Assembly (NCBI GenBank): GCA_039820645.1
Contig: JBCBPQ010000003.1
Coordinates: 54,913 to 118,912 of the forward strand
From: Cyanobacteria bacterium J06633_8
GTDB taxonomy: Bacteria; Cyanobacteriota; Cyanobacteriia; Cyanobacteriales; Nostocaceae
Length of the DNA: 64,000 bases
Reading direction: 5' to 3'
Positions 1 to 17,282 of this stretch are shown here, piece after piece (within the stretch, counting starts at the first letter, position 1; each line of letters begins with the position of its first letter). A model generated the notes under the pieces. That model was given only the letters and a program-made list of their open reading frames with translations. It was not told the DNA's origin and made no database searches. The translations under genes and the position numbers were made by a program.

Positions 1-1
1 T

Positions 2-340
2 GAGATTTTTAATTAATTTATCTCGGATTGGACGAAATTCTTCAGAATAAAACCATTTTTGCAAATTAATCCTCAAATCATCTGCATTTTTCTCACATTT
101 CACAACTGTTTCAGGAGTGATTTCATAATGTTCTCTCTCTGAACTTGAACTACGTCGTCTTCCACCTAAATCGCAATAGATATCTTGCCATTGTTTGTAC
201 TTAACATTAATTGGAACACCAGGTAATTTAGCATCTTTTTGAATATTAGATATTAAACCTTCTTCACCAATTTGAAGAGTGACAGGAAATCCTTGATTAA
301 AATCACCATCACCTATTTTTAAAACTACTCGCTTACCCAT
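2..340 (-). CDS. N-terminal part of a large multidomain protein with a CHAT-protease-type N-terminus; the gene continues past the left edge
   Basis: I hand-translated the minus strand from the ATG at 340-338. It stays open to the window edge: MGKRVVLKIGDGDFNQGFPVTLQIGEEG..KLPGVP..KQWQDIYCDLG..LQKWFYSEEFRPIRDKL. I recall this pattern at the start of large cyanobacterial CHAT-domain proteins. The catalytic domain would lie outside the window. It is missing from the ORF track because it is truncated. Confidence 0.5.
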   Translation of the reverse strand, partial: MGKRVVLKIGDGDFNQGFPVTLQIGEEGLISNIQKDAKLPGVPINVKYKQWQDIYCDLGGRRRSSSSEREHYEITPETVVKCEKNADDLRINLQKWFYSEEFRPIRDKLIKNL

Positions 341-367
341 TTATCAATCCTATTCAAGTTACTTCAG

Positions 368-1120
368 TTAAACAATAAATTCTTGGATTACGTTTATATT
401 TTCTAGACTTATTTTGATACTAAATTTTTTTCCAGAAGTCGCGGTTATTCTACGTTGAATGTAATAACTATTAGTCTTAGCTTCTGCTTCTATAACTTTT
501 CCTTCTACATCAATTACAGGTTCCCCAGATGCTTCTAAAACAGTAAACTTTAAACCTTCTGGTAAAAATACTTCACCCCCAGATGGATAGACTTGTATAA
601 GCACCTTAATTGTTTGATTTGCTTCTCTACTTAAAGCAATCAATAAGATTACAGTTTGCTTTCCAACATCAGTTTCAAAATTAATTACTTTACCACGCTT
701 AATATCACTTCTAACTACAACTAACTTCGCTCCAAAAGCCCTTTCTAATACATCCACAGTCTTCCAAGCAGAAGCGTTAATTGTCCCTTGCAACCAATTA
801 TTTAAATTGACTAAACTTTCCTCGGGTACATCTGACTCAATAGCAGTTGTGGTTTCAGAAAAAATTATTTCTTGACTTAAATCAGATGACTTTCTCGCAA
901 TAAACTTTGTGAATCGCTTATTTTCTCTAAAAGCAACAAAAATAATCCCAGCAATAAAGCTAAAACCCACTAAAAAACCTGGAGGATTACCCTTAGTTAA
1001 TATCAGCAACAACAGCAAACCAATAAAAACTTGAACAGTTTGCTGGAATAGAGAAATCAACCCGTCTCTAGCTTCCTCATATAAACTAATTTCGTTACGG
1101 TTGACCCGAGCCATTTCCAA
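368..1120 (-). CDS. Membrane-anchored protein with a DUF1822-like C-terminal domain
   Basis: 250-aa ORF with two N-terminal hydrophobic helices (VQVFIGLLLLLIL, FLVGFSFIAGIIFVAF). The C-terminus (NNWLQ..AW..IKRGKVI..VILLIAL..IKVLIQVYPSGGEVFLPEGLKFTVLEASGE..YIQRR..GKKFSIKISL) matches the C-terminal pattern I recall for cyanobacterial DUF1822. It lies 27 nt upstream of the CHAT-type gene and 4 nt downstream of the previous gene. Confidence 0.6.
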   Translation of the reverse strand: MEMARVNRNEISLYEEARDGLISLFQQTVQVFIGLLLLLILTKGNPPGFLVGFSFIAGIIFVAFRENKRFTKFIARKSSDLSQEIIFSETTTAIESDVPEESLVNLNNWLQGTINASAWKTVDVLERAFGAKLVVVRSDIKRGKVINFETDVGKQTVILLIALSREANQTIKVLIQVYPSGGEVFLPEGLKFTVLEASGEPVIDVEGKVIEAEAKTNSYYIQRRITATSGKKFSIKISLENINVIQEFIV

Positions 1121-1124
1121 TACC

Positions 1125-1550
1125 TCAATTATTATTTATTAAGTTTGGTAATTCTTGCCAGAAACGAATTAATAGTCTACCTGCAATCACTATCCAAAGT
1201 AAAAAGTCAGATATGACAATAATAAAACATGCATAACGCAATACACCTAGTGCATTTTCTTGAAGACAAGTATCAAAACTCGAAAAATTCTTTCCTATAA
1301 TTAACTTTCCAAGCAAACCAGGAATCTTACATAAAAGTGCAAGTGCGATCGCATCTTGTATTGTCAGATAAAAAATTCTCCACCACTCACCCAATAGACG
1401 TTGACCCAATACATCTATAGGTTCTAGTACCTGGTCTAAAAACTTCTCTATTCCTCTAGCCACTTTTGTCTTTGGCTGAAGAATTTGTGGATTACTCACC
1501 CCTGTACTTGCTGAGGTCTGGGATGTACCAGCATTGTGCGATTGTTTCAT
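1125..1550 (-). CDS. Small integral membrane protein, unknown function
   Basis: 141-aa ORF with 2-3 hydrophobic segments (IFYLTIQDAIALALLCKIPGLL, ACFIIVISDFLLWIVIAG). It is the first gene of a tightly spaced three-gene minus-strand unit. Confidence 0.5.
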   Translation of the reverse strand: MKQSHNAGTSQTSASTGVSNPQILQPKTKVARGIEKFLDQVLEPIDVLGQRLLGEWWRIFYLTIQDAIALALLCKIPGLLGKLIIGKNFSSFDTCLQENALGVLRYACFIIVISDFLLWIVIAGRLLIRFWQELPNLINNN

Positions 1551-1895
1551 TTTACTCTTGCGTAATCAAATTATATTCCTGCCTAATTTAGATATAAATA
1601 TTACCATCTATCAAGAGAATATATGCAATAAATACTTTTTAATTACAAGCCAAAGATGATAGATACAAATAATGTTCGGGTAAATGTTCTTGATAATACA
1701 AAAAAAATAATTATTAGTAAGCTTCGGAACTCAAATTGCTTATCAATATGGTTTTATACTTTGCTCCCTATTCCCAAATCTGGCGTTCGTTCCTTCTCTT
1801 AAAAATATTTAATTAGTATACTTGTCACTTAAGAGCCAATATTATTGAATCTGTAACCTATAAACTATTTTCATCAATCAGGGAGAAAATCTACT

Positions 1896-2498
1896 ATGAC
1901 AGCACAGAAAATTTTGATGATTGTTGGAGACTATGTAGAAGATTATGAAGTGATGGTTCCCTTCCAAGCTTTACAAATGGTTGGACATACCGTTGATGCT
2001 GTATGTCCCGACAAAAACACTGGTGACAAAGTCAAAACAGCTATCCATGATTTTGAAGGAGATCAAACTTACAGCGAAAAACCCGGTCATAATTTTACTT
2101 TAAATGCTGATTTTGCCACAGTAAACGAAAAAAACTATCATGCCCTAGTTATTCCTGGAGGTAGGGCACCGGAATATATCCGTTTAAATCAAAGAGTATT
2201 AGAAATAACTGGGTATTTTGCTCGAACAAATAAACCTATTGCTGCAATCTGTCATGGTTTACAAGTTTTAGCCGCTGCTAATGTCTTGCATGGTAAAACC
2301 TGTACTGCATACCCTGCCTGTAGCCCGGATGTAATTAGCGCTGGCGGCAAATACGTAGAAGTAAGTGCATCGGAAGTAGTAGTTGATGGTAACTTAGTAA
2401 CTGCTCCTGCTTGGCCAGCCCATCCTTATTGGTTAGCGGAATTTCTGAAAGTACTTGGTACTAAAATAGAGCATCCCATAATGATTCCAACCCTATAA
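1896..2498 (+). CDS. DJ-1/PfpI family protein (type 1 glutamine amidotransferase-like, PfpI-type protease/deglycase)
   Basis: 200 aa with the nucleophile elbow [10 protein letters not shown] and the [11 protein letters not shown] motif. GGAG lies upstream of the ATG. Confidence 0.85.
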
Positions 2499-2534
2499 AT
2501 AAATCAATCAATGGATTCGATTAGATATTGTTAA

Positions 2535-2569
2535 TTTGCCAGTATTTAATACGGGAGCATACTGGCAAA
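2535..2569 (+). terminator. Stem-loop downstream of the DJ-1/PfpI gene (weak terminator candidate)
   Basis: Perfect 11-bp stem TTTGCCAGTAT / ATACTGGCAAA with a 13-nt loop, 37 nt after the stop. There is no clear U-tract. Confidence 0.3.
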
Positions 2570-3022
2570 TTGACTCACTCACTTATAAAATTCCCTAAGC
2601 CAATATCTTCTCAAGGGAAAGTAAAAAAAGTTTACTAATAAAAAATTTTAACAACCCTATATTGATATTTTTTATTTTATAAATACAGATTATCCTTTAA
2701 GTCAAGACTGTAAATATACAGTTGAACTAAACTACATAAAACTAACTTTTTTTGATGACTATTACCATGCTTAAAATTTATAATTCTACAAAGCCAAAAT
2801 ACTCAATGTGGCGTAGACTAAGATGATGGGTGATTTACCGAATGCTTTTTACGACAGCCGACAGGACTTTTCCTTCTAAAGTTTCACTTCTTCTAAAGCG
2901 CAAACTATGGTCAACTATAGTGTATTAATAAGCCGTCGTAAAAAATATAAATAAAGTTGCTCCCGTTGAATCTTAGTGACAACAAAACCCATTTATTATA
3001 GTTGAGAAATAATACTGACTTG

Positions 3023-4393
3023 ATGACAGGCAAAAACGCGAGACAGAATGCATTTCTGCGGCTAGTGTCTGGTAAAGAATCAGAAACACCATCGGTTCGT
3101 CAACGCTACTCGCTAATTCCAACCTCAGAGGCAGTAATTGGACGGGATCCTCACTGTCAAGTTGTATTGGATGCATTAAAGTATCGCATGGTATCTCGCC
3201 GTCATGCGGTAATTCGCCCTTTAACCTTATCTCCCGATGGTGAAATCAGTTGGGTACTTTGCGATTTAAATAGTGCTAACGGTACTTATCTTAATGGGAA
3301 ACGCTTGCAGGAATGTCAGCAAGTTTTTCGTGGCGATCGCATCACTTTAGGTTACGATGGACCTCAATTAATCTTTAGCTGCGAAACAGTCGAACAAAGA
3401 ACCACATTTTCTGGCGATACACCCCTTGCTGGCACAACGAATTCCCACAAATATTCCAAGTCAGCAGATTCAGTTAGCTTTACTCAATTATTTCCTATAG
3501 TTTCCACAGGCAAAGACTTAACTAGTAAAGCCTATTTAATACCTGGAATTTTAACAGTTATATTTGTAGTACTAATGTTTGCTACGGTAGGAAAACCGCA
3601 AGCAAATCAAGTTATAGTCGCTGTTTATATTGCTTTTGCTGCTTACTATTTTATTTATCAGCTATGTGGAAAGCATAAACCTTGGTGGGTTTTAATGACT
3701 GTAGCTTTATCTACAGCTTTAATTTTAGTTAGCCCCATTCTGGATTTATTTATTTTTGTATTTCGTGAAATTCTACCCGGTAGATTGCCTACGGCACAAG
3801 AACCAATAACTTTTACAGAATTGCTAGTACGGATGTTTTTCGGTGCTGGCTTAATGGAAGAACTACTTAAAATATTGCCAGTTATAGGTATATATCTTAT
3901 CGGTTTAAAACTATCTTCACCTTGGAAAGAGCGGGTTGGAGTTTGGGAACCACTAGACGGCATCCTACTTGGTGCGGCTTCTGCTGTAGGTTTTACATTA
4001 TTGGAAACTCTAGGTCAGTATGTGCCAGAAGCTACTCAAAGTGCTGCTATTCAATCGGGAACGGAAACAGGACAATTAGTCGGTTTACAGCTACTAATTC
4101 CTCGAATATTAGGTTCTGTGGCAGGGCATATGGCTTACAGTGGATACCTCGGATATTTCATCGGTTTAGCCGTACTTAAACCAAAATTAGGGAGACAAAT
4201 TTTATTAGTTGGCTATCTTAGCGCTTCAGCACTTCATGCCTTATGGAATACAACTGGTGCTAATAACGCTCTACTCTTAGTTCTTGTAGGTGTATTATCT
4301 TATGCTTTTTTAATGGCTGCAATTCTTAAAGCACGAGCTCTTTCACCCAATCGCGAGCAGAATTTTGCCACACGCTTTTTCGGTAACAAGTAA
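3023..4393 (+). CDS. FHA domain fused to a PrsW-family intramembrane protease
   Basis: The N-terminus carries FHA motifs (VIGRDPHCQVVL, SRRHAVI, CDLNSANGTYLNGKRL). It is followed by about 7 hydrophobic helices with protease-type motifs: EELLK, HMAYSGYLGY and HALWN. The track starts at TTG 3002; the in-frame ATG at 3023 is preferred. Confidence 0.8.
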   Translation: MTGKNARQNAFLRLVSGKESETPSVRQRYSLIPTSEAVIGRDPHCQVVLDALKYRMVSRRHAVIRPLTLSPDGEISWVLCDLNSANGTYLNGKRLQECQQVFRGDRITLGYDGPQLIFSCETVEQRTTFSGDTPLAGTTNSHKYSKSADSVSFTQLFPIVSTGKDLTSKAYLIPGILTVIFVVLMFATVGKPQANQVIVAVYIAFAAYYFIYQLCGKHKPWWVLMTVALSTALILVSPILDLFIFVFREILPGRLPTAQEPITFTELLVRMFFGAGLMEELLKILPVIGIYLIGLKLSSPWKERVGVWEPLDGILLGAASAVGFTLLETLGQYVPEATQSAAIQSGTETGQLVGLQLLIPRILGSVAGHMAYSGYLGYFIGLAVLKPKLGRQILLVGYLSASALHALWNTTGANNALLLVLVGVLSYAFLMAAILKARALSPNREQNFATRFFGNK

Positions 4394-4468
4394 TTAGTTG
4401 TTAGTTGTTAGTTGTTAGTTGTTAGTTGTTAGTTATTAGTAATTAGTTGTTAGTTATTCGTCAATTTT
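4392..4468. repeat. STRR heptanucleotide tandem repeat (TTAGTTG and variants)
   Basis: About 10 contiguous 7-nt units starting right after the FHA-PrsW stop. Confidence 0.85.
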
Positions 4469-5092
4469 ATTTACAATTATTTGTTTATCCGATAAAAGTA
4501 GCTACTAGTTATTTGTCATATTTTGCTTCTGTTGTTCGTAATTTTTTAGTTGCTGCTCTTCAATAAAATTTGCTATTTATAGTTTTTACCTATCGATTTA
4601 TTAACTGGCTCCCCTCGAACTTTTTGAATATTAGTTTTATCACCCACCTGTAAATTATGGTCAATCCATTTTAAATCAATCTTATTCTTTACTCGGATAT
4701 AGAATCAGTTCTTTTTTCATAGTTAGTAATAGCCTTTAAGGAACCTTTTCCTTCAAAACCTGCAATACAAACTAGTTATTCATTAAGCAATATTAAGCAA
4801 TACTTAAAAAACAATAATTTATATATACCAGCGATTTGCAGCGATTAAACAATATCTTTACTGATACTGTATTAGACAAAATTTGTCTTTATAGCTTTAT
4901 CAAAAAGCATATTGTTTTAATATGTCTTTTGATAGATGAGACTGGAGAATTAACTATTTTATCCTTTATATATAATGGGAAAATCTAACCCAAAGAAAGA
5001 AAAATCCTGAAAATAGTATAGCCCCAGTCATAGAGAACACAACGACGGTGATATTTCCACTGCTATTAGAGTAGATAATGGCGAAAAAATAA

Positions 5093-5749
5093 TTACTCTT
5101 CTGACTGAAAACTATCTAACTGGTTTAGTGCATGATAAGCAACCGCTAAACCTGCTTTTGCTTGCTCAATTTCTGATAAAGCTCCCCACTCATGGTTGTT
5201 GTTGCGATCTAAATTAGCCAAAGTTGATTCAACCCTTTTAGATTCCCCACTTCTGGTTGCGTAAGCTAACGGACGAGCTAAAACCATAATGTCGTCAACT
5301 TCTAAACTCGGTAATACAGCTTTGACACATTCAATCAGTTGCTCAGTCATCGACTGTTTTTCATTGAAAATTTCTGCTGCTTTTTGAGCAATCAAGTTTA
5401 TCCAAGATGACGGCATACTATTAGAAAATTCTTTCTGTAAATTCTTTTGAAGTTTAACCTCAACTGCTAAATTTGTATTACAATTGTCGTGCGGTAAAGT
5501 TTCAACTTTAGACCAAAGTGCATCTAACTGATTGTAGAAGCTTTCACTACGGGTGCTTATTTCTTCCTCTAGCAAATCTTGCATAAGAAATTGTTCTTCA
5601 GTTTGATTAAAGTAAGCTTGTGTATCCTCATCTCCAGGATTCCAAGGGTAGCTATTGTCTTCCGGCTCCAATAAAGTTGCAAGTAAATCCAATTCGACTT
5701 GAGAAAGTGAATTGTTAAAATTTGTTGAACCTTTGATTTTGTCAGCCAT
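5093..5749 (-). CDS. Conserved acidic hypothetical protein, last gene of the PP2C/CHAT operon
   Basis: The ORF is open to 5818, but the ATG at 5749 (MADKIKGST..) is preceded by GGAG. The protein is acidic and helical, with no motif I recognise. Confidence 0.6.
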   Translation of the reverse strand: MADKIKGSTNFNNSLSQVELDLLATLLEPEDNSYPWNPGDEDTQAYFNQTEEQFLMQDLLEEEISTRSESFYNQLDALWSKVETLPHDNCNTNLAVEVKLQKNLQKEFSNSMPSSWINLIAQKAAEIFNEKQSMTEQLIECVKAVLPSLEVDDIMVLARPLAYATRSGESKRVESTLANLDRNNNHEWGALSEIEQAKAGLAVAYHALNQLDSFQSEE

Positions 5750-5929
5750 GTGTTGTCTCCTTTTGTGTTTGGGTTTAGGATATTGACAGCTACAGAACCT
5801 AGTCTTTGATTTCCGCAAACTGAAACTTTATTTTATCCAGTAAAAAGCTTTTGATTTTGAGTAACTGTGTAGGCTCTATGTTAATACTCAAAGCAGTAAT
5901 AACACCAAAAAACATAAATTTCTAATCTG

Positions 5930-7495
5930 CTAATTTTCTATACGAAATTCCCAGGTTTGACTTTTAGTGCTGCCAAACTTTAGATGCATTCCCGATTCTA
6001 AAGGTACTTCCCGTCGGTAAATTTGCTCCCAACCGCCAGAGCGTAAAACCCAAGTTGTACCGTAGGTAGATAAATCTTGTAAATAATAAGTTTGTACTTG
6101 AATATCGCCATTGAGATTATTACGACGTAGAATTTCAGCGTGACGCTTTGAAACCGAAGGTTCTCTGATTACAATATCATTTTCTTTTATGCGACCAATG
6201 CGAGTCACCCCCGGTTTGAGTAAATAACTTCTACCTCCTACTTGTAGCGAACGTAGAGAAACATTTGCACTACCAGGAATAAAAGTTGTTGGTATTTCTG
6301 TAGCACCTTCCTCAAAGCTTTTAAGTAATTCCCCATCAAAGTGAGGGTGTAGGTAAAGAACAGGTAAAGTCCAAGCTGGTTGGTTGAAATGATAAATAGT
6401 TAGTAATCTTTTTCTACCTTCGGCGACGGCTTCATCAATGGGTTTGCGGCTGCGTAAAGCCAAAGCAAAAGTTTGAATAAAGCTGTGACTTTCTTCATCA
6501 GTAATTTCGTCGCGCATTCCCAGAACCGCTGGAACACCTTGGCGTATAAGAACTTCAGCCAAGCTGCTATGGGCAATAGCTTTATTTTTATCCGAGAAAG
6601 GTTGTGCTCCCCAACAAGCATTAAAAACTGCTAGTTTTACATTACTGCGCGTTAAAGCTTGAGCTAATTCCATGCCGTTAAAGGTCATATCCTTTTGTAA
6701 AAATAGAAACCCCCCATCAGGTCCTGGCAAGCCATGACCGGCATAGAAGAAAACATTATAAGCTTTGGTTTCTAGCTCTGAAATTAGCTTTTGTGGAGTT
6801 GGTTTTACCAGTGTCTTTACTAAGCAAGGAGCGTATCCGGCAGAATTATTACCTACAGAATTTCCTCCAGATAGAGTTTGTTGAAGAATGCTTGCTTCTG
6901 CTTCTAGCTGGAGATTTTCATCTTCTCCTAAAACCAATAAGATATTTAGAGCCCGATCACTTTGTGAAGAAGACAAGGGTTCAACTTGAGAAGTAGTACG
7001 GCTAAATAATAAATGTTGGGAAAGCGACATTGCCGGTTGTCCGGGTTCGCGCTGCATAATTTCCCAAGGAAGGGCAATTAAATCTGGTTCGCGGATTTCC
7101 AGTCGAAAACGTAAGCGTGTATGCTGGCCCATAGCGATTCCACGACTTCGTTCCAAACTGCCGAGAATTTCTCCTTGAAATACCCAACGCCATAAACTAA
7201 CTCCCATATATTGCATCAAACGACTGCTGTAACTGGTTTTTTTGCCAGAAGTGGGTGATAGAGAATTTAATTGGAGGGGTATAGAGTTTTCGGACTTATT
7301 TTGTGGCGATATGTCTAAGCGAGAATGTCCGGCAAACATTTGTTGCCATTCTTGCCAAGCTTGATTTAGTTCTTCTGACCACAAGCAATCATGTAGAACA
7401 TAACCACTGGGATAGGGGGCATTCACCACCCAAATGGCGAAATTGTCAGTGCCAGTGTGAACGAGACGGGCGATCGCCAGGTTAAGGGATGGCAT
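5930..7495 (-). CDS. CHAT-domain (caspase-like, clan CD) protease with a C-terminal FHA domain
   Basis: His/Cys dyad context FFYAGHG ... LAVFNACWG. The C-terminus has FHA motifs: TRIGRIKENDIVI, SKRHAEI and LQDLSTYGTTWV. Confidence 0.8.
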   Translation of the reverse strand: MPSLNLAIARLVHTGTDNFAIWVVNAPYPSGYVLHDCLWSEELNQAWQEWQQMFAGHSRLDISPQNKSENSIPLQLNSLSPTSGKKTSYSSRLMQYMGVSLWRWVFQGEILGSLERSRGIAMGQHTRLRFRLEIREPDLIALPWEIMQREPGQPAMSLSQHLLFSRTTSQVEPLSSSQSDRALNILLVLGEDENLQLEAEASILQQTLSGGNSVGNNSAGYAPCLVKTLVKPTPQKLISELETKAYNVFFYAGHGLPGPDGGFLFLQKDMTFNGMELAQALTRSNVKLAVFNACWGAQPFSDKNKAIAHSSLAEVLIRQGVPAVLGMRDEITDEESHSFIQTFALALRSRKPIDEAVAEGRKRLLTIYHFNQPAWTLPVLYLHPHFDGELLKSFEEGATEIPTTFIPGSANVSLRSLQVGGRSYLLKPGVTRIGRIKENDIVIREPSVSKRHAEILRRNNLNGDIQVQTYYLQDLSTYGTTWVLRSGGWEQIYRREVPLESGMHLKFGSTKSQTWEFRIEN

Positions 7496-7613
7496 GGATT
7501 CTGTAAACTTAAAGGTAAAATGAAATAACTACATAGCTAAATTTTTTCAGGCAAAATGTTTGCCTAGAATTTTTTTTCAGGCGATGACCTGGATTATTTC
7601 AGTTTCTTATAGT

Positions 7614-10040
7614 TTATCGAGTTTTGGAATCAGTGCTGTTACCCCTTGGGGGTAATATAGTAGAGTCTCTTAGATTCTCAGGTTTTGATGGAATTAACTG
7701 CTGGCTAGGGGTTTTATAATCTTCTACCGGTACTGAAGTTGAGGAATCTTCAATCTCTGGAGCTAAGGTATCTGCCTTTTGACATTGATTTGTTTTATTT
7801 GCTGGATTGGAAATTGAGACATTAGACGGTGTAAGTTGGGAGCTATTAAGCCATACTTGTTCCCCTGGTTTGAGCAGTGTTCTGCTGCTGGTAGTGGCAG
7901 TCGCAGAATTTATCGCCGCCTCAACATCTCCAACTGAGCATACCTTAATCTGTAACCAGTAATCTTGTGATGATGAAATCTGCTGTTTTTGCACAACTTG
8001 TAACAAACTAGCAGGTGGTGCAAAAATTGGTAATGGTTGTTGAGCAGATGAATCATTATCCGCAGGGGGCAAAGTACTTTTACTAAGATTTAATTTTGCT
8101 TTAGCACTAATTAACCAGCCTTTGTCAATTTGAGCAAGTCTCTGAGAATTAGTCTCAAAAGTCGGTTCTGGTATTTTTGGGGGTCTATTTTGCGTTTGCG
8201 CGACTTCTTTTGGTTCGGAATTGCTGCGGATTATACCTTGTCTCCACCAGTATCCTAAAGCACCTCCAGCGATACCAAGTAAACCAACAATTCCCAATAT
8301 TAAGGGCAAATTAAAGCCTTGAATATTAGCTTTTTTAGTAATTACTTGAGTTTTTTGATTGGGGAGATTTTGTGTTAACGGAGCTAAATGTGAAGAATCT
8401 GTCACAGAAATTGAGGAAATATCAGCAAGACTTGTTTCTAATGCTGATTTTGGCTCAGAATATTTAGTCTGGCAATGTATGGAAGCGATTGTCACATTGT
8501 CATGACCGTTTTGATTGTTAGCAATTTCTAACAATTGCTTAGTAACGCTTACTACATCACTATTATTTTTAAGTAGCGGTAATATTTCGGTTTCCCAGTA
8601 TTGTTCGACACGGTCAAAATCACTTAGGCCATCCGAACATAGTAGAAAAACGCAGTCTTCATCAAGGATGAATCGCTGTGCTGTAGGGTGTAAAGCACTA
8701 CTCGCATTCATTCCCAATGCTTGTACTAAAGAACCAGAAGCAGGTTGTGCTACTGCATCTCGATAAACTGCATAGCCTAGCCGTACTTCTCGCGAAGCAA
8801 CATCATCGTCAAGAGTGACTTGATGGCAATTGTTTGGCGTAATTAGGTAAGCTCTGCTATCCCCGACATGAGAAATATACATTTCATGTCCTAGAGGTAA
8901 TGCCATTGCCACAGTTGTTCCCATGCGTTGCCGTCCTTGACGATTTTCACTATCGTTAAGCTGGCTAATTTTATCGTTAGCAATAGCAGCAGCTCGTTCT
9001 AAATCAGCGAGCAATACAGCAGGATGAATACGATCCTCTGGCAAAGAGGCTAATTGGGTTAGAGACTGTTGAATCGTCTCAATTGCCGTTTTAGAAGCGA
9101 CATCTCCCCCTTCATGTCCACCAATACCGTCACAAACAATAGTCAACGCTGACTTTGATGGTGGTTTAGAAATAGTAGTACCGCTTTGGGGATAACAAGA
9201 ATCTTCATTACGTTGACGGGATGGACCAGTATCTGTAATTGCAAATACCTTAATGTCAATTTTGCTAGATTTGCTCAAACTAGTTAATCCGTTATCTAAA
9301 ACGGCAATCAACTGTTCGCTTGAATGTATTTCCTCTTCTACTAATAAACGACAAACTTCGCCCATGAAATTGCGAATCGTCGATTGCGTTTTTGGAAGTA
9401 ACTCTTGCTGCCAAAATTTTCCGAGAGCCAATAAACTTGGTTTTGTTTCGCGATCAGAACTCAATTCTAATAAACGTACTATTGAACCTTCAGCTCGAAT
9501 TAAATTTTTTGCCAGTAAACTAGAAGCAACACCAACACTGGCAAAAGGCTGCCATAATTGAGCTATTTGCCATAGCCAATGAAGTTGTCGCAAAGAGTTT
9601 GTGTCTTCCCAAGCACCTGTTAATTCTCCACATAGCTGCACCTTTGTTGGTGATTCATTGAGAACAAGCGGCGGCTTTTCTAAAAGTAGTATTTCTTCAG
9701 AAGTATTCCCGGTGTTGAGAGAGAGTATTCCATAAACTTGAGGAATGTGTAATCTATAGGGAATTAATCTTAGATAAGATTTTATGTCATCTAACTTTTG
9801 TTGTTCTGGTATTTGTGGCAAAATACCTGGTTTTGTGTCTAATAAAACATTATGCTCGACAATTAAATAACGCTCTTGTAACAATTCCCCTGAATTACCC
9901 ACAATCGAATTATCCGCCACAGCCCAAAGATAACGTTTGGGTAGGGGTGTGGAGCATCGCTGGCAAAACTTGTGGGTAAGGGGGTTAGCAGCTTGACAAA
10001 GTTCGTTTGGACAGTAGAGCGTTGCCGCGTCATTTTCCAT
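7614..10040 (-). CDS. Membrane PP2C (PPM) Ser/Thr phosphatase with an N-terminal zinc ribbon and a kinase-like, apparently inactive domain
   Basis: Zn-ribbon YCPNELCQ..FCQRCSTPL. PP2C motifs RQRNEDS, VCDGIGGHEGGDVAS, HVGDSRAYL, LLCSDGLSD and NGHDNVT. One TM helix (LPLILGIVGLLGIAGGALGYWW) is followed by a 220-aa Ser/Pro/Gln-rich tail. Confidence 0.85.
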   Translation of the reverse strand: MENDAATLYCPNELCQAANPLTHKFCQRCSTPLPKRYLWAVADNSIVGNSGELLQERYLIVEHNVLLDTKPGILPQIPEQQKLDDIKSYLRLIPYRLHIPQVYGILSLNTGNTSEEILLLEKPPLVLNESPTKVQLCGELTGAWEDTNSLRQLHWLWQIAQLWQPFASVGVASSLLAKNLIRAEGSIVRLLELSSDRETKPSLLALGKFWQQELLPKTQSTIRNFMGEVCRLLVEEEIHSSEQLIAVLDNGLTSLSKSSKIDIKVFAITDTGPSRQRNEDSCYPQSGTTISKPPSKSALTIVCDGIGGHEGGDVASKTAIETIQQSLTQLASLPEDRIHPAVLLADLERAAAIANDKISQLNDSENRQGRQRMGTTVAMALPLGHEMYISHVGDSRAYLITPNNCHQVTLDDDVASREVRLGYAVYRDAVAQPASGSLVQALGMNASSALHPTAQRFILDEDCVFLLCSDGLSDFDRVEQYWETEILPLLKNNSDVVSVTKQLLEIANNQNGHDNVTIASIHCQTKYSEPKSALETSLADISSISVTDSSHLAPLTQNLPNQKTQVITKKANIQGFNLPLILGIVGLLGIAGGALGYWWRQGIIRSNSEPKEVAQTQNRPPKIPEPTFETNSQRLAQIDKGWLISAKAKLNLSKSTLPPADNDSSAQQPLPIFAPPASLLQVVQKQQISSSQDYWLQIKVCSVGDVEAAINSATATTSSRTLLKPGEQVWLNSSQLTPSNVSISNPANKTNQCQKADTLAPEIEDSSTSVPVEDYKTPSQQLIPSKPENLRDSTILPPRGNSTDSKTR

Positions 10041-10743
10041 AGGTTCACACCGAGAAGGCGATTCATGTTCATTTTTGTGTATTCATAGAGAACGGTTATA
10101 CAACCGTTCGCGTTCATATAAAACGATATATTCCATTTTGACTCGGGATTTTACAACAGACATTTTTAGTCGCTAGTATTTTGAAAGCAAAATCTAGCCT
10201 GTCAATTAGTCATAATACGTCTTTTAGAGAAAGTATATAAAAAATTACCATCTTCGGGATGATGTTCATACTACTTGTTATGGTATTTTTTAGGGCAAAT
10301 ACAATCTTGGAAAGAGTCTTGCCATATACAAAGATTGAATATTATTTCTTTATCTGTTTTTTATATATATCTAATTTGTAAATCATTAGACGACGACAAT
10401 TTAAGTATTTATATTTTTGGAGTCATTTAATTTACTGTGCATTGTAAGTAATTAAACCGTAATTTTCAAGCAAAGAAGTTAGCTTTACTTCATATGTCCT
10501 ACTATTCCACTAGATTAAAATATATATAGCCAGATTAAGACGATAAACCAGTAGAATCATTCAGCAGTTTTCTTGTTTCAATTGCAGTCGGATGTTGACT
10601 TGATTGTCTAGAGAAAGAATAACCTCCAACCAGCCTGATATAAATAAATCCATAAATAAAAAAGCCAACAGCAAATTGTCTTTTAGTAGTTGCGAACTAA
10701 TTTCCTAATGGTGAATGTAAAGTTATTGTTAAGACCGATAAAT

Positions 10744-10776
10744 CATAAGAGGTGAATAAATTACTCACCTCTTATG
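10744..10776 (-). terminator. Stem-loop downstream of ndhM
   Basis: 12-bp perfect stem CATAAGAGGTGA / TCACCTCTTATG with a 9-nt loop, about 60 nt after the ndhM stop. An A/T-rich tail follows on the transcribed strand. Confidence 0.5.
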
Positions 10777-10833
10777 AGGGTCTTAGCTATCTTTATAAAT
10801 TTTTAACTATTTGTACTTATAAAGAACAGCTAT

Positions 10834-11190
10834 TTAATTGCTTTCGGACTCTACAACTTGGGGAAGTCCCATACTATAGTTGTTGACTCGTGCGGATATG
10901 TTGTAGCTAATGGAGCCAAGTTGTAAAAGCGAACGCACGAAATGCTCTAAATCCGAGCCGATACGACGCAAATTATAGTCTGTAAGGTCTTCACCACTGT
11001 TAGCTTCCACTAACTCGTCAAATTTACGATACACAAGCTGTAGAGTATCTTCGCTCCAAATAAATTCATTATCTGGATCGATATCTAAGGTCAACACCTG
11101 ATTGCTAGGAACCAATTCGCCATCCTCAACTTCTGCCGCAAAAATACGGATATGGCGGGTTGTTGATTTGAGCAGCATCTGGTTATCCAT
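10834..11190 (-). CDS. ndhM: NAD(P)H-quinone oxidoreductase subunit M
   Basis: [65 protein letters not shown]...RV.NYSMGLP is the NdhM signature as I recall it. The real start may be the second Met, at 11178. Confidence 0.85.
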
Positions 11191-12049
11191 AGGAGGCTTT
11201 TGTTCTCCAAACGTTAATTAACACTCCAATTATTGTAGACTCTAAATTCGCTCCTGTTGAAACCTTAATATGAAATGATTTAGCTCGGAGTCTTGCAAGC
11301 GAGCTATCATCAAAGATTTTTCATAAATGATGGACAAACCTTTCCCCTAATTTTTCATTTAATAGCTGAATGCAGCAGTCTTTTTATCAATTGGGGAACC
11401 ACTAATTTACCATTGCGGTCAGTCTGGTAAGCTTGAATCGGTACTGTACCATAATGCTTGTAAGGAAATTGAAATAACCCTTACTTGTCATATTCAGAAG
11501 AAATAATTTAGGTAATGTGCTGTCTTTATACATTAAAGCTAACTTCATACTTAAAAATTTTGGTCTCAATACCTAATTATGTTTTTTTAATGAATAAAAC
11601 CTACATCTAGTAATTTTACGGAATTGCTAAACAGCAAGCTTAGGCTATAGTCTAATAAAATCAATTCAGCGTTTTTACCTACGTAGTATTACTTCGGTTT
11701 TAGTTAAAAGCAAAACTGTTATTGACGTGGAGATAAGTTTGATGTAAAAACCTTTAAAAAGCTCTAGCAAGTTCTTACAGAAACTTCATTGTATAGAAGT
11801 TTAAAAACTGAATAATAGTTTATGGTTTGCTAGAACTGTAAGGAGTGCATGAATATAAAATTATAGATTCAGTTAGTCTACCGATAAACCAATATGAGGG
11901 AGAGTGAAATGCAATACCGATAGAAATGGATGATTTTTCTTCTTGCAAAGTCAGACACTACTTTCGATTTCAAACAAAATATAAAGAACTTTTGCTTGAG
12001 ATAAAACTCCTCACCCCCATGACCACCGAGTAAAGGAACCGTAATAACT

Positions 12050-12331
12050 ATGAACTCGAAAGCATTACCACGTCAGGTAAACAATCCAGAAGTAGGCGTT
12101 TATGAGTGCGAAATCAATCTCAAATTCCGACTGATTGAGGAAAAAAGTTTATTGCGCGATCGCGAACAATTACTACACGTTCTCTTAGATGCTTTGGCAG
12201 AAGGTTCTGACGACTTTCTAGAGATGTTGCAGCAGGTTGTAAAGGTTCACCAGACAACAGAGCTAAAAGCCTCACCGCAAATGCGTCGTCAGCTAATGCG
12301 GTTGCGTAACTCTAACGAAATGAACCAATAA
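12050..12331 (+). CDS. Small conserved hypothetical protein (93 aa)
   Basis: Clean ORF with coding-like composition (VYECEINLKFRLIEEKSLLRDREQLLHVLLDAL..). I cannot name the family with confidence. Confidence 0.55.
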   Translation: MNSKALPRQVNNPEVGVYECEINLKFRLIEEKSLLRDREQLLHVLLDALAEGSDDFLEMLQQVVKVHQTTELKASPQMRRQLMRLRNSNEMNQ

Positions 12332-13410
12332 CTAACACTGCTCGATCGAGTAATGGTTGATTGTGTAGCTTTTAAAGAGATCTGCCTGGTAAATTATTAA
12401 GTTTAAATCCAAAACTTAATTTTTTTTCCACAACAAGTTAAATGGTGTTACTAAGCGCGAACCTGTTCTCAAAGCTGGGTTTTGCCTTATGTTATCGAAA
12501 CGTCACATTCATAGTGCGTCTACCCAGCATCTACGCATTTTATGACGGGGTTGCGTCTACAGTAACCAAACGTTGGTGAAATTATTAAATGAAAGAATTT
12601 GGGTGCCTACTAACTAGCAATTGCTCTTGTACAAACGAGCCGGTTGCAGTCTACGAAAAATTTGGACATACCAGGGAAGAAAATATTTATAATTGCACGA
12701 CTATTGCAGTAGTATTTGTACCCTCCTTTACAAAGGCAAACAAAGACTGAAGGGCTTTTCACTACCTAAATTACCTCAAAAAGCATCTCACCATCGCAAT
12801 CCTTTTTAATTTGTTCATGACTTCAGATATCCGCAGCTATTTTTATGTGTTCCCCTATTATGTGTGCTTGCAGTAAGAATTATGAACTTGTGTGGGATGA
12901 GTCTGGAAGACTAAGTACTCTTCCCATGCATAATTCTATGAATATTTTCACGAATTCATGTTTTGGATACTATGCCTATGAACAAACTATACTGAGTAAA
13001 GAATAATTCGATTGAATAACTTGAGTTTATGCTTATAGACTTTAAGAGTTTTAAATAACTACTACTAATGTTTTTGCCATCTCAATCGGATTCTTTCCCT
13101 GATAATTAGATACTTAATAATCACCTATCTTTTCATACCTGTAAATACGAAATATTACTTAATTATATGTATTTGATCGAGTAAGAAAGTTGTCCGATTT
13201 AACAAACATAGGGATTTATTCCGAATACTTTTTGGGAAAAATATCCGGCAGCACTTTTTTAATACAAGGATTCGCAAATACGAGAAAAAGGTGTTGAGAA
13301 ATTAAAGCGGCGTTGCTAAACCTTCTTGGTATTATATTTTACGGGAGTATAAATAGATAGCAAACCCTAAATAATCTCAATCCCAGTCAATAATTTTCTT
13401 GGGAGTTCGT

Positions 13411-14106
13411 TCAGTTAGCTAAACCGTGCTCCAAAGCAAATCGAACTAGTTCAGTACGGCTATTGGTTCCGGTTTTGCTAAACAAGCGACTGACGTATTT
13501 TTCCACGTTACGAACGCTTGTATCTAAGCGACGAGCAATTTCTTTGTTCATTAATCCTTCGGCAACCAGATTTAAAACGCTTTGTTCTCTGGGAGTCAAG
13601 TCAATATTGAAGGGTGCGCTTGTTTGAGTAATAGCATTTTTTTGAGTTAGCAACGCTTCGATTCGAGCCATTTGGGATGCTAATTCAGCTAAATCTGGTG
13701 TTTCTCCTTCCTCAACAGTCGAACTAGTCTTGGCAGCCCGACGAGCAAGCAAGTTTTCTACAATCGCCACTAACTCATCAGGATCGAAAGGTTTAGGTAG
13801 ATAGGCATCAACTCCGGCTTGGTAACCTTGGATGCGATCGCCAGTCATTCCTTTTGCAGTTAAAAATATGACTGGTAATGTTTTAAAACGAGTATCATCC
13901 CGGAGCCGCTTGAGAAATTCATACCCATCCACTTGAGGCATCATAATATCGGATATAACGAGATCGGGTATATTTTGCTGCATCCATTCCCAAGCATCAT
14001 TGGCGTTACTGGCAACTTGAACGTTAAAATTACTAGCTTCTAAGTAATCTTTTACGGCTTCGCGCAATCCGGGTTCATCATCTACCAGTAACAGTTGTGC
14101 TGTCAT
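13411..14106 (-). CDS. Response regulator, NarL/LuxR type (ycf29/Rre1-like)
   Basis: REC domain (LLLVDDEPGLREAV, DLVISDIMMPQVDGY, VIFLTAKG, KPFDPDEL) plus a C-terminal LuxR HTH (LTPREQSVLNLVAEGLMNKEIARRL..SVRNVEKYVSRLF.K). The start is taken at MTAQLLLVDDE. Confidence 0.85.
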   Translation of the reverse strand: MTAQLLLVDDEPGLREAVKDYLEASNFNVQVASNANDAWEWMQQNIPDLVISDIMMPQVDGYEFLKRLRDDTRFKTLPVIFLTAKGMTGDRIQGYQAGVDAYLPKPFDPDELVAIVENLLARRAAKTSSTVEEGETPDLAELASQMARIEALLTQKNAITQTSAPFNIDLTPREQSVLNLVAEGLMNKEIARRLDTSVRNVEKYVSRLFSKTGTNSRTELVRFALEHGLAN

Positions 14107-14167
14107 ATCAATCTTCCTGTATTGTACATTTTCCAATTTAGCTAAATATGGTGACAGTTTGAAGAAA

Positions 14168-14367
14168 GGAGTGGAAGCAATACTCCTCGGTTAAGCCTTC
14201 TTAAACTCGTTTTCAGATCCCCCGAGATGGAGCCTTAAATGCCCTTGCTGGCTTTTTGAGGTTTCCTCCCTTGTAGTAAGTGGCGTGGCTTATTTCCCTC
14301 CTTTATAAGGAGGGCTAGGGAGGATCTGGTTTTAACTGCTAAGTGCCCTTTCCAATTTCTCCACTCC
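14168..14367. repeat. MITE-like composite of small dispersed hairpin repeats
   Basis: Bounded by the 8-bp inverted repeat GGAGTGGA (14168-14175) / TCCACTCC (14360-14367). Inside are a copy of GCCACTTACTACAAGGGAGGAAACCTC (reverse orientation; a second copy is at 50078-50117) and CCCTCCTTTATAAGGAGGGCTAGGGAGG (related to the array at 35595-35738). Confidence 0.45.
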
Positions 14368-14390
14368 AAACTCCCTAAATATTTGCTGTC

Positions 14391-15359
14391 TCAGAGCCAC
14401 TCAATCTTCTTAGCTTGAGGAGGTAATTTTGCTTTCTGCTGTCCTAAATAACGCGCTCTAGCTGTAAACAAGCCAATTGGTGTGTTCGCTAAGTCTAAGA
14501 AGCTCGCTTTACCTAGTAATGCTTTTAAAGTTGTTTTAGGCACTTCTTTAACCAACCAACGTAAGAGGCGATAATAACACTCATACTGGCCAATTTCGCG
14601 CATCAATTCTATATTGTGCAGTTCGTGGAGATAGCTATTAGAACGTCCATAACGTTGCCACTGACTTTTTAATTCTTTTAATGTGCTTCTGTGGCGATGC
14701 TCAACAATCGCTTCGGGAGCAAATTCCAAACTGCCAATTTCCAGTTGCAAAATTCGCCAACATATGTCGGCATCGCCTCCGGTTGTTAAATATGGACGAA
14801 ATAATCCTGCTTTTTCTAGCGTCAAACGACGAATTGCTAAGTTGGCAGTTTGTCCGTAAGCACAAAATTTATTAGCTAATGTATGTTTTTGCGATAATGT
14901 TTCTTGCCTATCAGCATACTTTTCTAAAAAATTACTACTTGGCAAAGCTTTTATCTCACCGGCAACTATAACTATATTTGTATTGATAAAAGGTTTAACT
15001 AATTCTTCCAACCACTCGGGCAAGGGACGACAATCAGCATCGGTAAAAACAATTATTTCGCCCACAGCTTCGCGAATACCAGTATTGCGTGCAGCATAAG
15101 AACTTTGAATTTCGTTTTCGCTCAAAGCGCGAATTTTAATTGGGCAATTTTCTAAAGCTAGCTTTAATAATTCAGAAGTACCATCGCTACTGTTATTGTC
15201 TACTAACAAATACTCTACCCTATCTTTTGGGTAGGTTTGAGCCAATAGACAGTTAATTAATTCTGGTAAATCTGCCGTACCGTTATAAATAGGAACCACT
15301 ACCGATACCTGTGGTTTAAAGGTATTGGTAGCGGTTGTCTGAGATGAATCGTGATTCAT
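14391..15359 (-). CDS. Glycosyltransferase family 2
   Basis: VSVVVPIYNG..LLAQTYP..EYLLVDNNSSDGT..FTDADC are typical GT-A/GT2 motifs. Confidence 0.8.
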   Translation of the reverse strand: MNHDSSQTTATNTFKPQVSVVVPIYNGTADLPELINCLLAQTYPKDRVEYLLVDNNSSDGTSELLKLALENCPIKIRALSENEIQSSYAARNTGIREAVGEIIVFTDADCRPLPEWLEELVKPFINTNIVIVAGEIKALPSSNFLEKYADRQETLSQKHTLANKFCAYGQTANLAIRRLTLEKAGLFRPYLTTGGDADICWRILQLEIGSLEFAPEAIVEHRHRSTLKELKSQWQRYGRSNSYLHELHNIELMREIGQYECYYRLLRWLVKEVPKTTLKALLGKASFLDLANTPIGLFTARARYLGQQKAKLPPQAKKIEWL

Positions 15360-15630
15360 GAATTCGAGATTATTGACTAGGAATTGATAGTTATTAGTGA
15401 AAAACTACTAACTACTCTGATTTCAGTATTCCCAATCCAAAATCATTATCAATAATTTCTAAAAAATAAGAAACAATGAAAACTCAAAATTCTCATAAAA
15501 TAGCGATTGAGGATACAACCACTAATTAAAATCTTTACCATGGAAAAAAGTAATGGGCGTTGGTAAGCCGGTTGAAATACATATCCTACGCCACTACCAC
15601 CGATTAACCGCGCCTTGCTAGAACAACTAT

Positions 15631-16959
15631 TTAACGTCTGGGAAACTGTAGAGGTTGGCGAGAAAATTGATTTTGCCCAGGAGATGCAAAGTAGTTATTT
15701 GATAAAATTGACAATGCACGGGAATAGTGGGGATCTTTATTTGTTCCTAATAATCTTGGATTGGAAGCAAGTTGACGTTGTTGAGATGCTGTCAAATCCA
15801 TTTCTATATCAGGTGTAATTCCCTTTTTATTGATATCAGTTCCCTTCGGAGTATAGTAATGAGCAATAGTAATGGCAACACCAGAGCCATCTGCTAGTTC
15901 ATGAACTGATTGTACTAATGCTTTTCCGAAGGTTTTGGAGCCAATTACGGTTGCTCGCTTGTTATCTTTGAGCGCGCCTGTAAGGATTTCACTGGCACTA
16001 GCAGAGTTTCCATCTACTAATACTACCAACGGACGATTTGTCAACGCCGTGCTATTGGCTTTTGTTAATTCACTTCCACCTTTACGATCTTCCGTGCGAA
16101 CTATTGCGCCTTCATCAAGCCACATCCGAGCTATTTCAATGCTTGCATTTAACAAACCACCGGGATTTCCTCGCAAGTCTAAGACGAAACCGTCAACATT
16201 ACTTGCATTCAATTTACTAATAGCTCGTTGCATTTGTTCTGCTGCATGAGCGCTAAATTCTCGCAAGCGTATATAGCCAACTTTGCGATTACCTTCTGTT
16301 TTCAGGGTGTAACGCACGGTTGGGACTTCAATAGTCGCCCGTGTCAGCTTGACATCAAATGCTCTTTGGGTTAATCTCCCCAACCGCAAATTAATGGAGG
16401 TACCCACTTTTCCTCGAATTAGCTTTGAGGCATCCTCTATTTTCATATTTTTAGTGGATTTACCGTCAATAGCTAAAATCACATCGCCTTCTTTTATTCC
16501 TGCTTTCAGTGCAGGAGAATTTTCTAATGCTTCAACAACCGTTAAAAGCTGCGTTCTTTGATTTATTTCCATACGAATACCAATTCCCGAAACTTCTCCA
16601 GAAGTTTGGGAAGTAAGAGCTTGATATTCTCTGGGGTTCATAAAACGAGTGTATGGATCCCCCAATCTTTTCAAAGCTTGACGAACCGCAGTATAAGCTT
16701 GCTCCCGAGAAGTATAATTTTTGCTTAATAAAGTTTTTCTTGCAGTTTGCCAGTTCTGGTTGTTAAAAGATCCGTCTACATATTCGCGATTTACTAATTG
16801 CCATACTTGGTCAACAATCGCTTTAGGACTATCCTGTAGAGCAGCTTGTACTTCACGACACCAAACTGGACCAAATACAGATATTGCTGCTGTTGTGGTT
16901 ATCGCTCCACCAATAAAAGCCGATCGCAGCCGCGAGTGACGTTTCGCTGATTGTTTCAT
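15631..16959 (-). CDS. Carboxyl-terminal processing protease (S41 family, Ctp)
   Basis: PDZ region (GIGI..GD.ILAIDG) and S41 core (LDLRGNPGG, VLVDGNSASASEI, GSKTFGKA). The start is taken at MKQSAKRH (16959), ahead of a signal-anchor-like segment. Confidence 0.85.
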   Translation of the reverse strand: MKQSAKRHSRLRSAFIGGAITTTAAISVFGPVWCREVQAALQDSPKAIVDQVWQLVNREYVDGSFNNQNWQTARKTLLSKNYTSREQAYTAVRQALKRLGDPYTRFMNPREYQALTSQTSGEVSGIGIRMEINQRTQLLTVVEALENSPALKAGIKEGDVILAIDGKSTKNMKIEDASKLIRGKVGTSINLRLGRLTQRAFDVKLTRATIEVPTVRYTLKTEGNRKVGYIRLREFSAHAAEQMQRAISKLNASNVDGFVLDLRGNPGGLLNASIEIARMWLDEGAIVRTEDRKGGSELTKANSTALTNRPLVVLVDGNSASASEILTGALKDNKRATVIGSKTFGKALVQSVHELADGSGVAITIAHYYTPKGTDINKKGITPDIEMDLTASQQRQLASNPRLLGTNKDPHYSRALSILSNNYFASPGQNQFSRQPLQFPRR

Positions 16960-17282
16960 GTATATTTGCACTTTGGAATGGTGTTTTTGACAGTTTAGCA
17001 ATTAGATTATCCAGAAACTGATAAGTTTTGCTTGCTGGAAATCTTAATTTATTGCTTAATGAATCAAATTTTTCTTAAAACACGCTTATAAAGCTATGAT
17101 TAATGGCTTCTTAAGTTAGTCAATTGCCTCTGCAAGCTTAATTGATTATTATGCCACTTTAATCAGTGTCATACTGGCAGCCAATTTTACTTTATTTAAC
17201 AGAGCCGATGGCTTAGCTATATTAGTTACATTAATTTTGAACTTAACCCAAGCTACTATTAACCATTTTATTCAGATTTCCC

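Follow-up and report, generated by a model that had tools for sequence, protein, structure and literature searches.

HetF is an Arg-specific CHAT protease that cleaves PatU3 after Arg117 and needs this Arg residue for the cleavage (PMC9457339). In Bacillus subtilis, the membrane protease PrsW is the site-1 protease of RsiW, a single-pass anti-sigma factor, and a fusion of PrsW with an FHA domain was mentioned in passing by Zhang et al. 2012 (PMC3482391). The product of all1731 in Anabaena PCC 7120, PrpJ or PrpJ1, is described as a plasma-membrane phosphatase of the PP2C family with a role in heterocyst maturation; the prpJ mutant reportedly lacks the major heterocyst glycolipid, does not fix N2 in air and is Fox- (PMC6161253). 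PrpJ1 and PrpJ2 are also reported to be needed for the regulation of hetR and ntcA. Membrane PP2C enzymes are encoded beside FHA proteins in the mycobacterial cluster fhaA-fhaB-pstP-rodA-pbpA-pknA-pknB and with PpkA/PppA/Fha1 of the Pseudomonas type VI secretion system (T6SS). In M. tuberculosis, PstP is also a phosphorylation substrate of the kinases PknA and PknB (PMC3052367). Here we analysed a stretch of 64,000 nucleotides from Cyanobacteria bacterium J06633_8 of the Nostocaceae (contig JBCBPQ010000003.1, positions 54,913 to 118,912; hereafter the window), in which four adjacent genes encode a membrane PP2C phosphatase, a CHAT-FHA protease, an acidic protein and an FHA-PrsW membrane protease. 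We consider it reasonably probable that these genes form a vertically inherited cyanobacterial module of phospho-threonine (pThr) signalling with protease outputs, used for control of the envelope or of differentiation (heterocyst maturation in Nostocales) and not for defence.

The CHAT-FHA protease (521 residues; 5930-7495, minus strand) was found by Pfam to carry two domains. The CHAT caspase-like domain (PF12770, clan CD cysteine protease; 4e-20, 72.8 bits against a cut-off of 24) extends over residues 136-366 (6398-7090, minus strand), and the C-terminal FHA domain (PF00498; 1.7e-12, 48.0 bits against a cut-off of 20.7) over residues 431-508 (5972-6205, minus strand). Orthologues of the cluster proteins were taken from 167 related loci and aligned. 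Both sequence motifs FFYAGHG and FNACWG were present, and the catalytic dyad His254 and Cys294 was invariant in 168 of 168 aligned orthologues. Within the FHA domain, Gly434 and Ser449 were kept in 168/168, His452 in 167/168 and Arg435 in 153/168 of the orthologues, and Ser476, Gly479 and Thr480 were also conserved. All 168 orthologues share Thr399, located in the linker outside the catalytic core. No hydrophobic helix was detected by a hydropathy scan. The NCBIfam equivalog model of HetF (NF045509) matched the CHAT part only (2e-41), and because the score of 142 bits stands against a cut-off of 1200, the protein is taken as a paralogue of HetF and not as HetF itself. The match to HetF-like proteins of 800-1000 residues covered residues ~90-395 only. 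The two systems have the HetF type of CHAT domain in common, and the catalytic Cys294 here is equivalent in position to Cys295 of HetF. HetF differs in having a membrane helix and a TPR region, both of which are missing from CHAT-FHA, where a C-terminal FHA domain is found instead. With TPR-CHAT (Csx29) of type III-E CRISPR, the CHAT fold class is the only common feature; neither CRISPR, Cas7-11, TPR or a Csx30-like partner nor a defence signature (PADLOC) was found here.

The neighbouring gene encodes an acidic protein of 218 residues (5093-5749, minus strand; isoelectric point 4.4, with 37 Asp and Glu against 16 Lys and Arg), for which no match was obtained in Pfam, NCBIfam or PADLOC. Its AlphaFold2 (AF2) model, built from 50 Nostocales rows, was all-helical with a mean predicted local distance difference test (pLDDT) score of 57, and the Foldseek search of this model against PDB gave nothing below E=4. 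Five residues, Y34, D153, R159, P160 and R166, were invariant in 145/145 orthologues. Both invariant Arg residues lie in the segment RPLAYATRS (5249-5275, minus strand), recognized from the alignment, and in the model residues 164-169, including R166, form a low-confidence loop between helices. As HetF cuts a small regulator after Arg, this segment may by analogy be a candidate cleavage site for CHAT-FHA. PatU3 and the acidic protein (all1729) share another feature, namely that both belong to the 'filament-only core set'. The present pair differs from HetF-PatU3 in that the putative substrate is encoded next door to the protease.

The membrane phosphatase (808 residues; 7614-10040, minus strand) starts with a C4 zinc ribbon, seen in the translation at residues 10-33 (9942-10013, minus strand; CPNELCQAANPLTHKFCQRCSTPL, pattern CxxxxC...CxxC), and Pfam matches to DZR or Zn_Ribbon_1 were obtained for 29/29 members of the family. 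The ribbon is followed by a conserved N-domain without recognised fold (residues ~36-260; 9261-9935, minus strand), about 225 residues in length and with a mean column identity of 52% in the alignment of 29 diverse members. The PP2C catalytic domain (residues 265-525; 8466-9248, minus strand) was identified by Pfam (PP2C_2 and PP2C, above the gathering score), NCBIfam, a PDB sequence search and alignment. It resembles tPphA, Stp1 and PstP (1e-18 to 1e-16 against PDB sequences), and the metal-binding motifs RxxNED, DGxGGH, GDSR, SDG and DN were kept in 112-113 of the 113 orthologues. The scores stayed below the NCBIfam equivalog cut-offs (Stp1/IreP, 159.7 against 230; PRK14559, 251.9 against 374). 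A Kyte-Doolittle scan indicated a single transmembrane helix at residues 578-596 (8253-8309, minus strand). From its position beyond this sole helix, the C-terminal region of ~210 residues (7617-8252, minus strand), rich in Ser, Thr, Pro and Gln and without Pfam match, is predicted to be extracytoplasmic. The alignment also revealed a motif K-T564-x-V-[I/L], present here as N-Q-K-T564-Q-V-I-T (8337-8360, minus strand), at 14 residues ahead of the helix. The Thr of this juxtamembrane motif was found in 96% of 113 orthologues (78/80 in Nostocales and 29/32 in others), the other columns of the linker being only 25-50% conserved, and the residue at +3 was I, L, V or M in 101/112 orthologues. Many FHA domains prefer pT-x-x-I/L. 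Judging from the sequence, T564 might be phosphorylated and the motif might serve as a docking site for FHA domains.

The fourth gene, FHA-PrsW, is transcribed in the opposite direction. The reading frame runs to 4393 on the plus strand from ATG at 3023 (456 residues) or, in the longest open reading frame, from TTG at 3002, 21 nt upstream. By Pfam, an N-terminal FHA domain, cytoplasmic in the predicted topology, was located at residues 45-117 of the 463-residue form (3134-3352, plus strand; 1e-16, 61.5 bits against a cut-off of 20.7), and a PrsW-type intramembrane protease domain (PF13367, MEROPS M82) at residues 226-441 (3677-4324, plus strand; 1.7e-37, 129 bits against a cut-off of 23.5), the latter match covering 196/196 profile positions. 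The protein is polytopic, with at least five hydrophobic helices in the hydropathy scan. In the alignments, the PrsW motifs EExxK, FxxxE, H and HxxxN were invariant in 102/102 orthologues, and the FHA residues G-R, S-x-x-H and S-x-N-G-T were kept in 98/98 non-gap rows. T162, in the context T-G-K-D and outside the catalytic core, was conserved at 97%. FHA-PrsW has in common with PrsW of B. subtilis the full-length match, the four motifs and the polytopic membrane character. It differs in the added N-terminal cytoplasmic FHA domain and in its surroundings, which contain no pair of extracytoplasmic function (ECF) sigma factor and anti-sigma factor; neither the window nor the related loci examined had a sigma or anti-sigma gene among the neighbours. 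Judged by the conserved residues described above, the three enzymes appear to be active and the two FHA domains to be functional.

The first-pass annotation, made from the nucleotide letters, had located four genes at these positions, and had proposed an FHA domain fused to a polytopic PrsW-type protease, a zinc-ribbon PP2C membrane phosphatase, a CHAT protease with intact His and Cys contexts and a C-terminal FHA, and an acidic protein devoid of recognisable motif. All these assignments were confirmed by the searches and alignments described above. The three minus-strand genes, in the order of PP2C, CHAT-FHA and acidic protein, are co-directional and converge on FHA-PrsW. A 'tight' operon, as they had been called, was not borne out, the spacers being 118 and 180 base pairs (bp). 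Between these genes, the minus strand showed no terminator-like site; the counts of promoter-like and terminator-like sites were the same as in shuffled sequence, and no Rfam match was obtained within 1-14000. The convergent spacer between FHA-PrsW and the acidic gene (4394-5092, 699 bp) is unusually long and AT-rich, and contained no Rfam match, no open reading frame of more than 50 residues and no convincing terminator. The base composition of the cluster resembles that of its surroundings.

Gene neighbourhood was then compared between the Nostocales set (83 loci, 25 lineages at 90% identity) and the non-Nostocales set (84 loci collapsed to 53 lineages, of which only those with enough flanking DNA were counted). 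The best 80 loci of the genome scan were all from Nostocales; the wider sampling consisted of metagenome contigs and single look-ups. Relatives of CHAT-FHA are encoded in more than 585 species-level genomes. The identity of CHAT-FHA was 88-93% to Calothrix and Rivularia and 66-74% elsewhere in Nostocales, and family members at 42-60% identity were found in Oscillatoriales, Spirulina, Leptolyngbya-like and some unicellular cyanobacteria. The order of PP2C, CHAT-FHA, acidic gene and convergent FHA-PrsW was observed for 25/25 Nostocales lineages, wherever the contig was long enough. Among the testable non-Nostocales lineages, the acidic gene adjoined CHAT-FHA in 38/46 and was the most constant neighbour, followed by PP2C in 26/44 and FHA-PrsW in 17/40. 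All three partners were present beside CHAT-FHA in 14 of the 36 fully testable lineages, and in none of these was FHA-PrsW adjacent without the acidic gene. The uneven counts indicate that the cluster is modular, with a core of CHAT-FHA and acidic protein, to which the phosphatase and then FHA-PrsW are joined. In Neosynechococcus, CHAT-FHA is joined by PP2C and the acidic gene, and the complete cluster is present in Desertifilum with entirely different flanks. The same order and orientation were seen again between unrelated flanking genes in many metagenome lineages as well as in Desertifilum, and this recurrence argues for a functional link. The earlier proposal of one pThr-linked module gained support from these observations.

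The locus of Anabaena variabilis type shows the order of ndhM, PP2C, CHAT-FHA, acidic gene and FHA-PrsW, identical to that of the window. Proteins of Anabaena PCC 7120 fell into the same 90% clusters as those of this locus for the acidic protein (BAB73428), CHAT-FHA (BAB73429), PP2C (BAB73430), NdhM (BAB73431) and the Npun_R1517-family protein (BAB73433), the last annotated as 'heterocyst differentiation transcriptional regulator'. From consecutive numbering, strand and size class, the cluster would correspond to alr1728, all1729, all1730 and all1731, accompanied by all1732 and asr1734. The window phosphatase showed 53-60% identity to Nostocaceae members and agreed with the PrpJ1 group in neighbourhood, architecture and best match. 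It is the positional orthologue of PrpJ1 (All1731), with ndhM upstream and CHAT-FHA downstream, and its single membrane helix fits the membrane location given in the literature. In the literature searched, by contrast with the present view, PrpJ1 is treated as a stand-alone phosphatase, and we found there no description of the zinc ribbon, the N-domain, the juxtamembrane Thr motif or the link to two FHA-proteases. The gene alr1728 is cited as a Fox gene of unknown function that is activated by FurA (PMC4005646). Since prpJ and alr1728 are both Fox genes, the mutants of the phosphatase and of the PrsW protease fall into one phenotype class. In addition, all1729 is one of ten 'filament-only core set' genes, together with hetR, patU3 and hetZ (PMC2821919). 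The developmental role which the first-pass annotation had offered as one of two possibilities is supported by these counterparts, inferred from the gene numbering, in particular by the heterocyst glycolipid defect and Fox- phenotype of prpJ1 and the Fox assignment of alr1728. It had also been aware of no described system of this composition. In the literature searched, we found no paper on all1730 and none treating the four genes as one system, the N. punctiforme locus tags leading to no paper either, and to this extent the statement holds; for two of the genes, nevertheless, mutant phenotypes are published, and a third appears in a published comparative-genomics list. The parts are each of known kind, and prpJ1 and alr1728 are already known genetically. 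What is new is the union of prpJ1, alr1728 and the genes of a HetF-like FHA-protease and a filament-specific protein in one conserved cluster, together with the fusion of pThr readers to proteases.

The Hanks catalytic-loop motif was absent from every frame of the 64-kb window, and no Ser/Thr kinase was detected among 19 window proteins scanned (0/19), in agreement with the initial view that no catalytically competent kinase is encoded nearby. Residues ~40-260 of the phosphatase had been labelled kinase-like, and this label was given up as unsupported, though not disproved. Pfam searches on 29 diverse members of the phosphatase family at E up to 10 gave zinc-ribbon models only and no Pkinase, and no kinase was found with the N-domain profile against PDB sequences. 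By hhalign, the probability of N-domain alignment with PknB and two cyanobacterial Hanks kinases was 0.1%, and only the zinc ribbon was aligned, with probability of 94%, to the N-terminus of a Hanks kinase, namely its own zinc ribbon. The AF2 model of the N-domain, from a 12-row alignment, had a pLDDT of 44 and gave no Foldseek match, an outcome that a deeper alignment could change. In two Nostocaceae genomes, Anabaena minutissima FACHB-250 (L029:8227-9744, plus strand) and Aliinostoc sp. HNIBRCY26 (L042:8278-9759, plus strand), a Hanks Ser/Thr kinase is inserted between PP2C and CHAT-FHA (Pkinase, 1e-37); the zinc ribbon at its N-terminus is of the same kind as in the phosphatase. The mycobacterial and T6SS modules share with the present cluster the membrane PP2C beside FHA proteins and the logic of writing, reading and erasing pThr at the membrane. 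They differ in that the cluster here contains no kinase except for the insertion in the two genomes, in that the FHA readers are on proteases and not on scaffolds or secretion parts, and in that neither RodA/PBP nor T6SS genes are present.

Domain content, intact active sites, conserved adjacency, orthology to prpJ1, alr1728 and all1729, and the lack of a linked kinase were all observed, and constitute the basis for the module. These findings altogether suggest that the cluster represents a so-far undescribed pathway of phosphorylation-controlled proteolysis in cell differentiation. As to its mode of action, we infer which protein is phosphorylated, which is cleaved and in which direction the control runs. 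The zinc ribbon, N-domain and catalytic domain of PP2C would face the cytoplasm, being anchored by one helix with ~210 residues outside. CHAT-FHA would be a soluble HetF-like cysteine protease, and FHA-PrsW a polytopic protease of glutamic type with a cytoplasmic FHA domain. An unlinked Hanks kinase would phosphorylate Thr sites at the membrane, among which the conserved K-T-x-V-[I/L] just inside the PP2C membrane helix is the strongest candidate. The two FHA domains would read the pThr marks and thereby bring both proteases there or activate them. CHAT-FHA may then cleave the acidic protein, or be controlled by it, in analogy to the cutting of PatU3 by HetF after Arg, and FHA-PrsW may make a membrane-proximal cut. 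Finally, PP2C would erase the marks and reset the system.

Several observations weigh against such a module. The putative functional link between the four proteins comes from sequence and neighbourhood, and FHA-PrsW is assigned to alr1728 by consecutive numbering only. The FHA domain of CHAT-FHA has Tyr or Phe at the position of the canonical Asn in the N-G-T motif. The acidic protein contains no invariant Thr across its orthologues, and is for this reason not an obvious ligand of FHA. The adjacency within Nostocales is weak evidence, since synteny there extends to ndhM, to the Npun_R1517-family gene and often to DJ-1. Of the fully testable lineages outside Nostocales, just 39% keep all four genes, and six lineages, including Gloeothece PCC 7424, carry CHAT-FHA alone amid unrelated genes.

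The direction of control could also be reversed, the proteases standing upstream of the phosphatase. FHA-PrsW would then dock on the phosphorylated juxtamembrane Thr and clip the outside domain of PP2C, initiating release or destruction of the phosphatase, and proteolysis would control the phosphatase. The topology of PP2C is indeed like that of the PrsW substrate RsiW, being single-pass with the N-terminus in and the C-terminus out, a zinc-binding cytoplasmic part and an outside domain. The conserved K-T-x-V-[I/L] motif at 14 residues from the helix, the known action of PrsW on a single-pass anti-sigma factor and the absence from the cluster of an anti-sigma or ECF sigma gene as the usual PrsW substrate agree with this possibility as well. 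On the other hand, the outside domain of PP2C is poorly conserved in sequence, and FHA-PrsW is the least constant member outside Nostocales, at 17/40 against 26/44 for PP2C. We regard this direction of control, drawn from the analogy with RsiW, as unlikely.

The four genes might also be neighbours by inheritance only, with CHAT-FHA and the acidic protein as a unit and with PP2C and FHA-PrsW as separate members of the extensive cyanobacterial repertoire of Ser/Thr signalling, nearby by chance and belonging to different pathways. That unrelated flanks are equally syntenic in Nostocales and that the adjacency of PP2C and FHA-PrsW falls to 59% and 43% elsewhere are in line with this explanation, and filamentous cyanobacteria are rich in FHA and PP2C domains (PMC2176072). 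For the links of PP2C and FHA-PrsW it is a fair rival, but it accounts poorly for the recurrence where the context has changed and for the Fox phenotype that two of the genes share. Order and orientation recur amid the unrelated flanks of Desertifilum and many metagenome lineages, three of the four proteins bear parts of one signalling chemistry, and mutants of prpJ and alr1728 are both Fox-. For the cluster as a whole, we find mere inheritance unlikely. An anti-phage or programmed-cell-death system, in which the CHAT caspase-like effector is unleashed by phospho-signalling and which the first-pass annotation had kept as its abortive-infection alternative, is very improbable, for even if CHAT proteases act as effectors in type III-E CRISPR as well as in several conflict systems and FHA domains occur sporadically in conflict systems (PMC7159879), six proteins compared with PADLOC-DB 2.0 at E up to 0.01 matched 0 families, the locus is vertically inherited and fixed beside ndhM in all sampled Nostocales at 66-92% identity, its base composition is ordinary and like its surroundings, the cluster lacks an NTPase, vWA, nuclease or CRISPR partner, and mutants of the orthologues show developmental phenotypes.

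Returning to the favoured reading of a pThr-signalling module with protease outputs, it can be extended to a specific form, in which PrpJ1 itself is the platform. Its phosphorylated juxtamembrane Thr would recruit both FHA-proteases, the CHAT protease would cut All1729 after an invariant Arg, PrsW would cut a target in the membrane that may be PrpJ1, and the timing of heterocyst envelope maturation would thereby be set. The writer would be an unlinked, or occasionally linked, zinc-ribbon Hanks kinase. Taken with all its steps, this scheme is speculative and improbable in full. If true, it would represent a two-protease cascade gated by kinase and phosphatase for multicellular development, with a phospho-degron-like logic as yet undescribed in bacteria.

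Variation was also noted inside and around the cluster. In Heteroscytonema, an IS605 OrfB transposase gene lies between PP2C and CHAT-FHA (L057:8567-9931, plus strand), and in Nostoc sp. CMAA1605 the PP2C gene is split (462 and 281 residues) beside a DUF4351 protein (L038:6501-9687); both cases are mobile-element insertions at one shared inter-gene position. For the lone CHAT-FHA genes, other partners were considered and rejected, the neighbours being unrelated, for instance LysR, isoamylase, P450 and an NB-ARC/GerE protein. The gene for a GerE-NB-ARC (STAND-type) protein is located 95 bp ahead of the lone CHAT-FHA of Gloeothece PCC 7424 on the same strand (L085:8590-9906, plus strand), and in this unicellular lineage the protein is a possible different partner of CHAT-FHA.

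Directly upstream of PP2C and on the same strand is ndhM (10834-11190, minus strand; Pfam 2e-52), encoding subunit M of NDH-1; it was found beside PP2C in every Nostocales locus but was missing from this position in Desertifilum and Neosynechococcus. A Npun_R1517-family protein of 93 residues is encoded two genes upstream of the cluster (12050-12331, plus strand; Pfam 6e-41), and its gene was syntenic across all Nostocales loci examined. Its counterpart in PCC 7120, BAB73433, fits asr1734, which is listed in the literature as a negative regulator of heterocyst differentiation. Further upstream, the region 13411-17001 (minus strand) encodes a response regulator with GerE output, a family-2 glycosyltransferase and a PDZ/S41 carboxy-terminal protease. 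This gene order matches that of the A. variabilis-type locus, and the whole stretch of ~15 kb is therefore collinear with Anabaena. On the other side, FHA-PrsW is adjoined by a gene for a DJ-1/PfpI family protein (1896-2498, plus strand; TIGR01382, above the cut-off), whose synteny held for about half of the Nostocales loci; the nitrate-assimilation genes narM-like, narB, nrtP and nirA come next in Calothrix PCC 7507 and Mastigocladopsis. An open reading frame of 250 residues (368-1120, minus strand) matched DUF1822 over the C-terminal 145 of 370 positions only, and is preceded by one of 141 residues without match (1125-1550, minus strand); the two may constitute a split or truncated DUF1822 gene. 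The largest open reading frame of the window, of 1582 residues, is located at 45122-49870 on the minus strand.

In the literature searched, PrpJ1 and alr1728 are without substrate or pathway, and all1729 is without assigned function. If the four genes form one conserved cluster, these scattered observations would merge into a single testable pathway. The cluster would then offer a tangible example of proteases equipped with a phospho-threonine reader of their own, and bacterial Ser/Thr signalling would extend from scaffolds and transcription factors to the direct control of proteolysis. CHAT-FHA and the acidic protein would represent, beside HetF-PatU3, a second pair of CHAT protease and substrate in the control of cyanobacterial multicellularity.

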